Of a stretch of 64,000 nucleotides of DNA, positions 48,803 to 51,661 are shown piece after piece; position 1 is the stretch's first letter; every line of letters starts with the position of its first letter. The position numbers were made by a program, and so were the translations under genes. Under the pieces are notes generated by a model. That model had not been told where the DNA came from. It saw only the letters and a list, made by a program, of their open reading frames with translations, and made no database searches. Source of the stretch: an uncultured bacterium (GTDB taxonomy: Bacteria; Abyssobacteria; SURF-5); assembly GCA_964607485.1 (NCBI GenBank), contig CAZSKP010000005.1, positions 101,052 to 165,051 of the forward strand. Reading direction: 5' to 3'.

Positions 48803-49726
48803 TCAAATCACTCCCTCTTTAAAATGTTGTTCATCCGCGGAATTCAGTCGAGCTCCAACTATATTTCCGCACGCATCTTTTGCTAAGTCAATTCTTTCCC
48901 ATCCTTCCGCGCTTATGTGACCATGTTTCGCGAGTTCTAACGCGGCGTAAGTCTCATTTGGCGGAAAACCCTCTCTCCTAAGATTAATAGGAGTGGCCAT
49001 GCTTGGCCAAAGACTTCCCACATATGAAACATGCTCATCACCATTTCTCTCAGGGGCCAGGTTTGAACAGACAATTCCGCATAGCCTTCCCATGTCATCA
49101 AACACCGGTCCGCCGCTCATTCCACCGTCGAATCTTGCATTGGTACGAAAGCACGGAAAATTCAAACGCGAACGGTCCCGTTGTCGCTCGTGGATTTCCA
49201 ATACCTCACCGATGGCAGTATGCGGGGAAGTCCTCCAAATCACTTCATCTATTTCAGCCAAGTTCCGGGTGTGTATATTTGAACTGGCATAGCCAAATCC
49301 TGATACCCTAGAATTAACTCGAGGAGGCAGCAAAGCGATTCTGGGAGGCCTCCACTTATATTCCGCCGCCAATTTGGAGGCGGGTGTCAGACGCAAGAAA
49401 GCAACATCTGTCCAACTTGATAGCCAAACCCTGGTTATGTTCCAAAGAGCGCCGGCCTTGCCTTCTTTTAGCACTTGTATCGCGTTTATGGAAAAATTCA
49501 GACTACGCTTCCCTTGTGTCGGCATCGATCCGGAGTTTTCACATCTGCAATAATAATCTTCAATTACATGTTTTGCCGTAATAGCCAGATATTGGCCTAT
49601 CACGATTGCGGTTCCCGAAGGGTAAAAATCATCGTCTCTTTTCGCTGTCAAGGCCAATGCGAACTCAGTAATAATACTGCTTAATGGAGTTTGTTTAAAT
49701 GATGGCCTTTTTGAGTACTGTCCCAA
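48803..49726 (-). CDS. trypsin-like serine protease, no evident signal peptide (TTG start inferred)
   Basis: Triad motifs TAKHV, TDVAFL and GMSGGPV; AAGGA RBS before TTG 49726; AT-richer DNA. Confidence 0.8.
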   Translation of the reverse strand: MGQYSKRPSFKQTPLSSIITEFALALTAKRDDDFYPSGTAIVIGQYLAITAKHVIEDYYCRCENSGSMPTQGKRSLNFSINAIQVLKEGKAGALWNITRVWLSSWTDVAFLRLTPASKLAAEYKWRPPRIALLPPRVNSRVSGFGYASSNIHTRNLAEIDEVIWRTSPHTAIGEVLEIHERQRDRSRLNFPCFRTNARFDGGMSGGPVFDDMGRLCGIVCSNLAPERNGDEHVSYVGSLWPSMATPINLRREGFPPNETYAALELAKHGHISAEGWERIDLAKDACGNIVGARLNSADEQHFKEGVI

Positions 49727-49817
49727 TTGGAACGATTCCTTCGTGAGATACTGCCAAAAAAAACATATTCCATGCCGGATGCGAGTTCCGAAATTCCTGC
49801 ATGAGCCAATGGCTCTA

Positions 49818-50162
49818 TTATCGGTACTCGATGCATATCGCGACGGCGGCGACGATATCTTCCATGACCGAGGCGGATAGCTCGCCGATTCTGCGAACCA
49901 GCCGCGCCCGGTCAATCGAGCGCACCTGCAACGCATTGGCGGCTAACTCATGCCTCAAGCTGTTCTCGGCATCCGGCAAGATTCTTATCATCCACGGGTA
50001 GCGGGCAAATTCGTTTTTCCATGTTGTGATGGGGACGATTATTCGGAGTCCGATTTTCCCAAGACTGTCGGAACTGATAATGACGGCGGGACGCGATTTT
50101 TTGATTTCCCTTCCCACGGTGGGGTCGAGATTCACCTGCCAGATTTCGCCTCTATAAGCCAT
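49818..50162 (-). CDS. mazF: PemK/MazF family toxin (endoribonuclease)
   Basis: RGEIWQVNLDPTVGREIKKSRPAVIIS and QVRSIDRARL. Confidence 0.93.
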   Translation of the reverse strand: MAYRGEIWQVNLDPTVGREIKKSRPAVIISSDSLGKIGLRIIVPITTWKNEFARYPWMIRILPDAENSLRHELAANALQVRSIDRARLVRRIGELSASVMEDIVAAVAICIEYR

Positions 50163-51342
50163 CGTCCGTTCCGTCGAGAGTGGTGAACGCGGTGAGTTCA
50201 GGATCGGTCGCGTAGGCGTCGGCGGCCCTTTCCGCCGCAGCCGCCAGTATCTGTCGCTGTTCTTCTATCGGCAGCGCCGCGATCTCTTTGACTCTGCCGG
50301 GACTCTCAACAAAAGATCGTTCTTGCATGGTTTCAATAACTGTCTGTATTCCCGGACAAAGCTTCTCAGCTCTGGCCTTCGAAATGATTCCTTCAGCCAG
50401 AGCTCTCAGAACTAATTGCCTGGTTCTAATGGGGGTCTCGGGGGGATACTGCGGCCCCGGCTCCTCCTTGTGCCAGCCTTTCTTCCTGAAAGCGATGCAG
50501 ACGCTTCGGTAATACCTTTCCGAAATTACGCCGAGGTCCTTCGCGCGTCTCAGCCACGCCTGCATGCTCAGGCCGTACTTGCGCTTCAGCAACGAGAGCT
50601 CGCTCAGTTCGAGCTTCTTCCTTTTTTCGCCGAGCTCGGCGATAGCCGCCGTGTCGGGTGCCAGGAACGATGCGGCGAACCGATGCGCCACAGACTCTTC
50701 GTCCATACGCCCGACCGGTTTCGTCACCAGATGGCCGAGTTCATGAACCCAGTTGTATCTCTGTCTATCGCCGGACACGTCGGCGTTCGTGACGAGCACA
50801 GGGGTCGTTCCATTTGCCATAGCCGAGACGCCATCAATTCGCCTGTTTGCGGACAGTGCTATCACTATCAATCCCCGGTCTTCAAGCGTTTGGGCAACGT
50901 TCTCGATGGGGTTCAAACCCAGTGCCCACTTGCACCTGAGGTCTTTCGCCAGCGCTTCCACATCATTCTCGCGTCTGATAGTGACTCGTTTGGGGAGAGG
51001 CGACCTGACCGGTTTGCCACTCAGCAGGGACTCGAGCAAAAGACGATTCTCTACTGTGTCCACAATCCGTCCCTCGATCATCCCCATGTCTCGTTTGGCA
51101 AGTCCGCTGTGTTTCCGATAGGAGACAAAGGATAAGGTGACCGTTGGCTCTTTGAGAAAGCGACTGGTCTTGACTCCGAGCGCCTCGGCGATACGAATGA
51201 GGGTCTCGGAGTTTGGGACCGTTTTACCGGTTTCGTACTTCGATATGGCTTGCTTGGTGACAAAGTGTCCCATTCTGCGCACCAATTCATCCATTGAAAG
51301 GCCCCGGGCCCTGCGAATTTGTCGTATCCTTTCGCCAATCAT
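50152..51342 (-). CDS. XRE HTH plus ImmA/IrrE-family metallopeptidase with an extra C-terminal antitoxin-like tail
   Basis: IGERIRQIR..TKQAISKYETG HTH; HELGH...EE..A.RFA zinc motif; about 55 extra C-terminal residues. Confidence 0.88.
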   Translation of the reverse strand: MIGERIRQIRRARGLSMDELVRRMGHFVTKQAISKYETGKTVPNSETLIRIAEALGVKTSRFLKEPTVTLSFVSYRKHSGLAKRDMGMIEGRIVDTVENRLLLESLLSGKPVRSPLPKRVTIRRENDVEALAKDLRCKWALGLNPIENVAQTLEDRGLIVIALSANRRIDGVSAMANGTTPVLVTNADVSGDRQRYNWVHELGHLVTKPVGRMDEESVAHRFAASFLAPDTAAIAELGEKRKKLELSELSLLKRKYGLSMQAWLRRAKDLGVISERYYRSVCIAFRKKGWHKEEPGPQYPPETPIRTRQLVLRALAEGIISKARAEKLCPGIQTVIETMQERSFVESPGRVKEIAALPIEEQRQILAAAAERAADAYATDPELTAFTTLDGTDDGL

Positions 51343-51390
51343 TCCCGGTCTCCCCCCTTGTCAAGTAACTATTGCAAACGCTCCTTTTTC

Positions 51391-51426
51391 GTTGACATAT
51401 TAGCATATTTTCATCGCTTTGTCAAC
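51391..51426 (-). promoter_or_regulatory. sigma70 promoter enclosed by an inverted repeat (likely operator)
   Basis: Minus strand reads G-TTGACA-17bp-TAATAT-GTCAAC with a TGn extension. GTTGACA/TGTCAAC form the inverted repeat. Confidence 0.75.
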
Positions 51427-51661
51427 CGAGCCAGCTAGCCCGAACCCATAATGACCCTTTCGCTAATGAACCTTCCGCGAATTTTGGTCTTAGAATAAGG
51501 CGAATCCAGCTTGCGATACTTTACTTGTGAAGGTTTATCGGAACGCACACTATGTTTTCAACTCCACGCCAGTTTTCCCCTTTGTGTTGAGTTTACGGGG
51601 CCGTTGCGGATAATGTATACTCCTGAAAAAGTCCATATAGACAAAGGAAGGGGCTGAGAGT

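Follow-up and report, generated by a model that had tools for sequence, protein, structure and literature searches.

The window analysed here is a stretch of 64,000 nucleotides from an uncultured bacterium (GTDB lineage Abyssobacteria, SURF-5; assembly GCA_964607485.1, contig CAZSKP010000005.1, positions 101,052 to 165,051), and its minus strand carries a two-gene cassette made up of a MazF-type toxin gene and a large antitoxin gene. The antitoxin gene (50152–51342, minus strand) encodes an RmrA-like protein of 396 aa that joins an XRE helix-turn-helix (HTH) domain, an M78 peptidase and a MazE-like tail, as assigned from the open reading frame (ORF), Pfam, 14 PADLOC RmrA models and an AlphaFold2 model. 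Directly 3' of it and in the same orientation lies the gene of a MazF/PemK endoribonuclease of 114 aa (49818–50162, minus strand), assigned from Pfam PemK_toxin, a profile search and conservation in an alignment of 29 MazF sequences (A3). The two ORFs share 11 bp (50152–50162), placing the mazF ATG inside the last codons of the antitoxin gene. An earlier sequence-only reading had described this 396-aa HTH and HELGH protein, its coordinates and its 11-bp overlap with MazF, and the ORF calls and Pfam bear it out. It had also claimed that no separate small antitoxin gene exists; indeed, there is neither room nor frame for one between the two genes, and among the ORFs of the locus no other frame between or around them could encode one. 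A 51-aa ORF at 49681–49836, which overlaps the 3' end of mazF, was considered as an antitoxin and rejected, as it lies mostly beyond position 49802, the limit of the similarity shared with a relative.

Residues 4–109 of the toxin match Pfam PemK_toxin (PF02452, E 3.1e-27), and its profile is closest to M. tuberculosis MazF9 (E 2.5e-22). The R24-P25 pair is invariant in A3, and R24 presumably corresponds to the catalytic arginine of characterised MazFs. The protein is the sole PemK match in a 4.7-Mb, 97.5%-complete genome, and it matches none of the PADLOC families.

Architecture of the antitoxin

The HTH domain occupies residues 6–60 (51163–51327, minus strand; Pfam HTH_3, E 1.7e-14) and the M78 (ImmA/IrrE) zinc-peptidase core residues 170–267 (50542–50835, minus strand; Pfam PF06114 Peptidase_M78, E 5.4e-9). 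The HELGH motif lies at residues 200–204 (50731–50745), and H200, E201, H204 and E216 are invariant in A4, our alignment of XRE-M78 proteins. A linker (residues 337–351; 50290–50334, minus strand), poorly conserved and of varying length in A4, leads from the core to the tail (residues 352–396; 50155–50289, minus strand), which runs KEIAALP...DDGL, consists of a helix followed by an acidic/aromatic end, and is predicted from the tail search, the genomic linkage and the complex model described below to bind MazF. HTH, protease and tail thus stand in one chain with a flexible linker. The AlphaFold2 model, built with 28 homologs, has a mean predicted local distance difference test score (pLDDT) of 91.2, which dips to 62 over residues 341–350; a helix follows at 359–379 (pLDDT 84–90), and residues 381–396 form a low-confidence end. 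A Cys-Pro-Gly/Glu/Asp/Trp motif (CPG in the window) stands at the start of the linker, at residues ~337–340, and recurs in 38 of 99 tail-bearing and 2 of 96 tail-less homologs; it might serve as a hinge or mark a site of processing.

Fourteen PADLOC models of RmrA, the RosmerTA antitoxin, match the protein (E 2.2e-45 to 7e-27) over approximately residues 4–349, leaving the tail uncovered. The best NCBIfam match is NF052239, the "spr1629 family repressor/antitoxin", at 103.2 bits, which is below the equivalog cut-off of 335. In the Protein Data Bank (PDB), the HTH profile matches ImmR-like proteins, SinR, P22 C2, DdrO and the N-terminal domain of CapH. Foldseek gives the same picture for the model: the peptidase part is nearest to CapP (7t5t) and IrrE/PprI (3dti, 3dte and 8sln, the last with single-stranded DNA), and the HTH part to SinR, CapH, DdrO and P22 C2. 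The full-length model matched PDB entries at the level of domains, with no whole-chain match at E <= 1e-3. One further entry, 9vzy chain A (393 aa, "HTH cro/C1-type domain-containing protein"), is matched by the M78 part of the profile (E 3.5e-8) and is not among the Foldseek matches of the full-length model; it may be a solved RmrA-like antitoxin.

A full-length search found 1922 relatives among 8000 scored candidates. Judged by its sequence, the large protein belongs to the established class of XRE-M78 antitoxins (Xre-COG2856, RosmerTA). The novelty that the sequence-only reading had assumed is therefore reduced, since proteins of this kind have already been described as an antitoxin class (Makarova 2009, Millman 2022, Ernits 2023).

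Recurrence of the fusion

A fused gene in a single assembly could come from a one-off frameshift or misassembly. This is excluded by full-length homologs and by independent contigs without gaps. Homologs of 396–397 aa, at 92, 82, 80, 78 and 63% identity, occur in separate assemblies with the ending kept, and the fusion recurs in many assemblies altogether. A contig from a second sample has 0 differences over 50076–50417, which spans the junction of core and tail as well as the gene overlap, and in a different study a 1831-bp contig aligns to 49959–51428 with 110 substitutions and 0 gaps. No RNA run was found among the listed sequencing runs that hold the cassette.

The C-terminal tail and its linkage to MazF

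The sequence-only reading had the protein continue about 55 aa past LAEGIISKARAEKL, where such proteins usually end. An extra C-terminus is indeed present; its length needs correction, because tail-less relatives also run 15–30 residues past LAEGIISKARAEKL, with a different ending, so that the class-specific extension comes to ~35–45 residues and not 55. A hidden Markov model (HMM) of the tail, built from alignment A1, was applied to the best 120 of the 1922 full-length homologs. The tail goes beyond chance: it is present in 79 of these (median length 401 aa) and absent in 41 (median 353 aa), which end differently after a conserved "RALAE..IS..RA.EL" helix.

When only the last 60 residues served as the query, 1.84 billion representative proteins yielded 20 matches at E <= 1e-3 (best 1.2e-8). 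In sixteen of them, none longer than 121 aa, the tail forms the C-terminus; these include fragments of the long form as well as proteins with unrelated N-termini. Pfam assigns ribbon-helix-helix (RHH, CopG-type) N-termini to four of the stand-alone tail proteins and DUF2281 to several others, and in the same scan no Pfam family covers the tail. By tblastn, residues 351–393 are 40–63% identical to small stand-alone tail proteins. The likeness to stand-alone ORFs before PemK toxins, which the sequence-only reading had put forward, is thus confirmed: small proteins that end in the tail do exist, with MazF directly downstream.

For the genomic linkage, one genome per species was scanned with a degenerate DNA pattern for DPELTxFxxLDG, which yielded at least 119 loci; ~4 chance matches are expected from the information content of the pattern. 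This pattern samples only one subtype of the tail, and the counts thus come from a biased sample. MazF was called by tblastn against the window MazF (E <= 1e-3), with its start between -80 and +300 bp from the stop, and a motif counted as C-terminal when it lay at most 20 residues from the ORF end with at least 150 bp following. Among the matches listed, MazF follows 75 of the 95 loci with a C-terminal motif, usually overlapping the stop, and accompanies 1 of the other 24, in which the motif sits inside an ORF or in an unrelated frame. Four of the listed loci have the fused XRE-M78 form (L002 and L022 from Planctomycetota, L074 and the fragment L067), and all four have MazF downstream.

A variant found mostly in Nostoc was observed among the loci with an internal motif (L015, L029, L034, L044, L054, L060, L076, L083, L090, L096, L101 and L103). 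Its DPELTEFSVLDGEDWE motif is followed by a conserved extension of ~39–47 residues (...HDAFLNGY..EDEGLYDD), and no MazF homolog adjoins these loci.

A second scan approached the linkage from the peptidase side. Metagenome contigs were scanned with A4, using search motifs in the peptidase and not in the tail, which gave 80 loci at 35–54% identity, 76 of which contain the whole gene followed by at least 150 bp. These 76 were screened with the tail HMM, which had been defined beforehand from other sequences. MazF lies directly downstream in 22 of 22 tail-positive loci and in 1 of 54 tail-negative loci; that sole exception, L197, has a visibly divergent tail. Among the tail-negative loci, 49 have a downstream ORF, and after removal of 3 duplicates and 7 ORFs shorter than 80 aa, 39 were scanned: 32 encode PIN and/or DUF3368 and 7 gave no match. 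These counts describe one scaffold family with two subfamilies: on comparison of the loci, the XRE-M78 scaffold carries either a short C-terminus with a PIN-type partner or a MazE-type tail with MazF. The PIN-linked sister subfamily is 40–47% identical in its core. Of 99 distinct homologs with the tail, 98 retain the HExxH motif, as do all 96 without it.

The tail-less class (L127–L201) ends in a different conserved C-terminus of ~25 residues, e.g. ELLGMPL..FWQEEA.QH.GFP, and is followed by a PIN + DUF3368 protein of ~165 aa; this ending may correspond, for PIN, to the tail that goes with MazF. On viral contigs we found 14 relatives (including L203–L213), all of them tail-less and none with MazF.

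Predicted complex of the tail with the MazF dimer

Two copies of MazF (A3, 29 rows) and the 49-residue tail (A1, 25 rows) were modelled together in three runs, alongside three controls. The interface score ipSAE was 0.87 in the three runs, whereas the best of the three controls reached 0.43; 116 of 157 solved complexes reach the mark used here, as against 2 of 215 mismatched pairs. The runs share at least 95% of their contacts, and the pLDDT of the partners is 86–87. In the model, the tail contacts both protomers, among others at MazF residues 22, 24, 79, 81–84 and 87, positions with little or no variation in A3; the contacts are made by the tail helix as well as by its final 15 residues. The binding of the tail to the MazF dimer is thus supported by a model that passes its controls. 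Together with the comparative evidence, it makes a well-supported case that the XRE-M78 protein is fused, in its tail, to a mobile antitoxin module linked to MazF.

Phylogeny of the toxins

The MazFs beside stand-alone tail antitoxins are 43–54% identical to the window MazF. A maximum-likelihood tree was built from 56 MazFs after rows with in-frame stops, rows cut at contig ends and identical duplicates had been left out; it has limited resolution because it rests on 110 columns. One group (support 99/94) unites the MazFs whose partners are RHH-type and other stand-alone antitoxins, and a separate one (100/98) those with DUF2281-type partners. In the unrooted tree, each of the two falls among the XRE-M78-linked MazFs, and the window MazF together with that of L002 is sister to the DUF2281-linked ones (98/86). 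The XRE-M78 label requires 2 changes on the tree, which, being unrooted, gives no direction of scaffold change. The pattern fits a toxin and an antitoxin C-terminus that behave as a single evolutionary module. Toxin and antitoxin C-terminal region have been described as one such module and the DNA-binding N-terminus as another (Smith and Magnuson 2004, as cited in PMC3879964).

In-frame stops were seen in the MazF genes of L008, L019, L047 and L050, each beside a seemingly intact tail-bearing antitoxin gene; these look like decaying modules.

Promoter, borders and neighbourhood of the cassette

A promoter-like site on the minus strand (51397–51425; TTGACA-17 nt-TAATAT with an upstream TG, 10/12 matches) lies 55 nt upstream of the antitoxin start codon and is kept in G002, an 80%-identical relative. 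It is embedded in a candidate operator (51391–51426, minus strand), the inverted repeat GTTGACA-N22-TGTCAAC, which extends from the -35 element to about +1. In the alignment with G002 the palindrome arms are identical, and the neighbouring DNA has diverged. The HTH domain probably represses the cassette's own promoter through this -35 to +1 palindrome. A tandem 15-nt direct repeat, TAATGACCCTTTCGC / TAATGAACCTTCCGC on the plus strand, was also noted just upstream of the promoter, at 51449–51478, just outside the stretch common to the X4 relative described next.

The extent of the shared two-gene cassette (49802–51428) was delimited with X4, a run from a different study, in which ~92% similarity ends at both borders and the sequence beyond 49802 and 51428 is unlike that of the window. 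The shared unit therefore consists of the promoter and the two genes. The genes flanking the cassette differ in L002, L022 and L074. The G+C content is 0.48–0.54 in the cassette region and ~0.59–0.60 in the flanks, and a search of the source phylum, which holds 11 genomes, found the gene in 2 of them; both observations fit horizontal acquisition of the cassette.

Downstream, a trypsin-like serine peptidase gene adjoins mazF (48803–49936, minus strand; Pfam Trypsin_2, E 2.9e-12) within the low-G+C stretch. Its weak PADLOC matches are RT-Protease_XI and LmuA. The ORF start as listed overlaps mazF by 119 bp, and the true start is probably further downstream. This gene was considered as a third component and rejected: it is absent beside the cassette in L002, L022 and L074, and the X4 similarity ends at 49802; it therefore lies outside the unit.

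Discussion

Comparison across homologs demonstrates the fused architecture, its recurrence, the linkage of tail and MazF and the conservation of the protease motif. We consider it probable that the cassette is a self-contained two-gene type II toxin-antitoxin system, possibly anti-phage, of the Xre-COG2856/RosmerTA kind, with MazF as the toxin and neutralisation mediated by the tail. In such a system, the XRE HTH would repress the cassette promoter via the palindrome, and the tail, through its helix and its acidic/aromatic end, would span the MazF dimer and mask the conserved face with which it binds and cuts RNA, so that the RNase would be neutralised. Toxin and tail would form one evolutionary unit that was grafted onto an XRE-M78 scaffold.

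Several points weigh against this interpretation or limit its reach. MazF is not adjacent in twenty of the 95 listed loci with a C-terminal tail, among them several short remnant ORFs. Because the loci are related to one another, they are not independent trials, and the linkage counts describe lineages and not independent events. The 22-nt spacing of the palindrome is unusual for an XRE operator. As for the complex, our own alignments were used in the modelling, and the calibration of the score is therefore only rough; moreover, MazE-MazF complexes have already been solved, and the passing score may partly reflect learned likeness. Against the latter, the tail profile has no meaningful match among PDB sequences (best E 0.08). 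Finally, the preprint on RipAB (10.1101/2025.09.02.673660) ties the toxin activity of this Rosmer-family pair to ClpX, which points to host factors and not to the antitoxin's own protease.

The last point concerns the role of the peptidase, for which we propose two possibilities of about equal likelihood. First, and most economically, the peptidase may be the trigger. A phage or DNA-damage cue would activate the M78 domain, which would cut its own chain or the other chain of the dimer, either within the linker or beside the HTH, thus freeing MazF and de-repressing the operon. M78 proteases are known to cut XRE-type repressors after a DNA-related signal in ImmA-ImmR, IrrE-DdrO and CapP-CapH, and it is by analogy with these pairs that we entertain, tentatively, a self-cut of the antitoxin. 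The full proposal of the sequence-only reading, in which one polypeptide would act as repressor, sensor-protease and antitoxin with MazF released by cleavage, stays in doubt for us. Retention of HExxH in 194 of 195 homologs indicates that catalysis is under selection in both subfamilies; it speaks for catalysis mattering and not for any particular substrate.

Second, the tail may neutralise MazF in the same way, with MazF being released in the classical type II manner, through degradation of the disordered tail or linker by host proteases (Lon, ClpXP). The M78 domain would then cut a phage or host protein, degrade bound toxin, or serve solely as a dimerisation or sensor scaffold. We hold this, too, to be a doubtful reading on its own. 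As in labile antitoxins, flexibility is predicted for the linker and the final ~16 residues; the toxin effect of RipAB is tied to ClpX in the preprint cited above; and the occurrence of one M78 core with two unrelated toxins, MazF and PIN, fits a generic role that is independent of the tail. However, with HExxH so widely kept, a purely structural role of the M78 domain is unlikely, and the proteins nearest in fold, CapP and IrrE/PprI, act on XRE-type repressors, while here the XRE domain is part of the same chain.

It is very improbable that the main task of the XRE-M78 protein is to act as the repressor/anti-repressor switch of a mobile element, as ImmR/ImmA do in ICEBs1, with MazF as neighbouring cargo and a tail that does not neutralise. 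M78 and XRE pairs do control prophages and integrative and conjugative elements (Makarova 2009, PMC2701414), tail-less members of the family occur on the 14 viral contigs, and the region is lower in G+C than its flanks. However, the unit common to relatives comprises only 49802–51428, flanked by differing genes in L002, L022 and L074, and the 11-bp translational overlap with mazF, the strict co-occurrence of tail and MazF and the lack of a separate antitoxin gene all speak against this reading. Least credible, to a negligible degree, is a fusion produced by a frameshift or a chimeric assembly joining an ImmA-like gene to a small mazE gene: the window does come from a metagenome-type assembly and the best-holding run may be its own source, but the homologs at 63–92% identity in separate assemblies, the 22 further tail-bearing loci at 35–54% identity and the two contigs from another sample and another study refute it.

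We return to the probable tail-neutralised toxin-antitoxin system and its place among known ones. Millman et al. (2022, preprint) introduced the name RosmerTA for a zinc-peptidase antitoxin paired with a toxin whose function is not known. The cassette resembles it in having an XRE-HTH and ImmA-type zinc-peptidase antitoxin, a two-gene operon and a variable toxin partner. It differs in that its toxin is MazF/PemK and belongs to no described RmrT family, these being of unknown function or membrane-depolarising, and in that the model pinpoints a MazE-type tail as the putative neutralising element. Makarova et al. (2009, PMC2701414) describe fused COG2856-Xre proteins whose operons also encode PIN and RelE toxins; our protein shares their fused architecture, and its sister subfamily lies directly upstream of PIN/DUF3368 genes. 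The partners given in the portion of that paper at our disposal are PIN, RelE and xre for COG2856, and AbrB, RHH, MazF/ccd and XF1863 for MazF, with no COG2856-MazF pair among them; what is proposed there is a three-component circuit and not a fused toxin-binding tail.

The cassette can also be set beside classical MazEF. It has a toxin of the PemK/MazF fold and an antitoxin gene directly upstream with an 11-bp overlap; the antitoxin, with XRE-HTH and M78, lacks the AbrB/SpoVT or RHH N-terminus of that group. The small RHH/DUF2281 antitoxins (L003–L120) carry a homologous tail, with MazF directly downstream and often overlapping. However, these are proteins of 77–143 aa with a simple DNA-binding N-terminus, in place of which the window has 336 residues of XRE-HTH and protease.

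Among antitoxins built on hub domains, PanA follows the same design, a promiscuous hub plus a short element, such as Phd-C, that neutralises one particular partner (Ernits et al. 2023); there, the hub is the DUF4065 Panacea domain and not M78, and it has no protease motif. The same study (PMC10440598) presents ImmA as a hub domain of antitoxins that pairs with many toxins, and AlphaFold gave no reliable complex for RmrTA of phage Kita. The cassette shares with the protease-repressor pairs ImmA-ImmR, IrrE(PprI)-DdrO and CapP-CapH an M78 fold near CapP/IrrE and an HTH near ImmR-like proteins, DdrO and CapH; in the window, however, HTH and protease form one chain, and the controlled gene is a toxin that, according to the model, is bound by that very chain.

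RipAB of Streptococcus pneumoniae (spr1630/spr1629) also has an antitoxin of the XRE and ImmA-like type. Spr1629 (RipB) antagonises its toxin genetically, and the RipA toxin is proposed to target DnaN and is not an RNase (preprint 10.1101/2025.09.02.673660). The NCBIfam model named after spr1629 scores the window protein at 103 bits against a cut-off of 335, and the latter is thus no equivalog. No published pairing of MazF with an XRE-M78 antitoxin was found in the open literature; the readable part of the NetFlax supplement names no MazF/PemK, but it uses node codes, and a D25-MazF-fold pair may lie within it. We read the cassette as a RosmerTA-like/Xre-COG2856 module that took MazF together with its cognate tail. 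Such a pairing is unsurprising in principle, yet it offers an unusually clean handle on the workings of a large antitoxin class.

Antitoxins that combine XRE with an ImmA-type protease (RosmerTA, Xre-COG2856, RipB) form a large hub class with many unrelated toxins, for which, in the parts of the literature consulted, neither the mode of neutralisation nor the substrate of the protease is established. The subfamily described here gives a concrete answer for one partner: a MazE-type tail of ~45 residues, exchanged together with MazF, is predicted by the model to do the binding. It also provides a natural example of a toxin and an antitoxin tail that travel as one module across at least four kinds of N-terminal scaffold. 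If self-cleavage holds true, the same logic would apply to the PIN-linked subfamily, with the C-terminal extension acting as a toxin-specific plug, and it would be a general mechanism of RosmerTA-type antitoxins.

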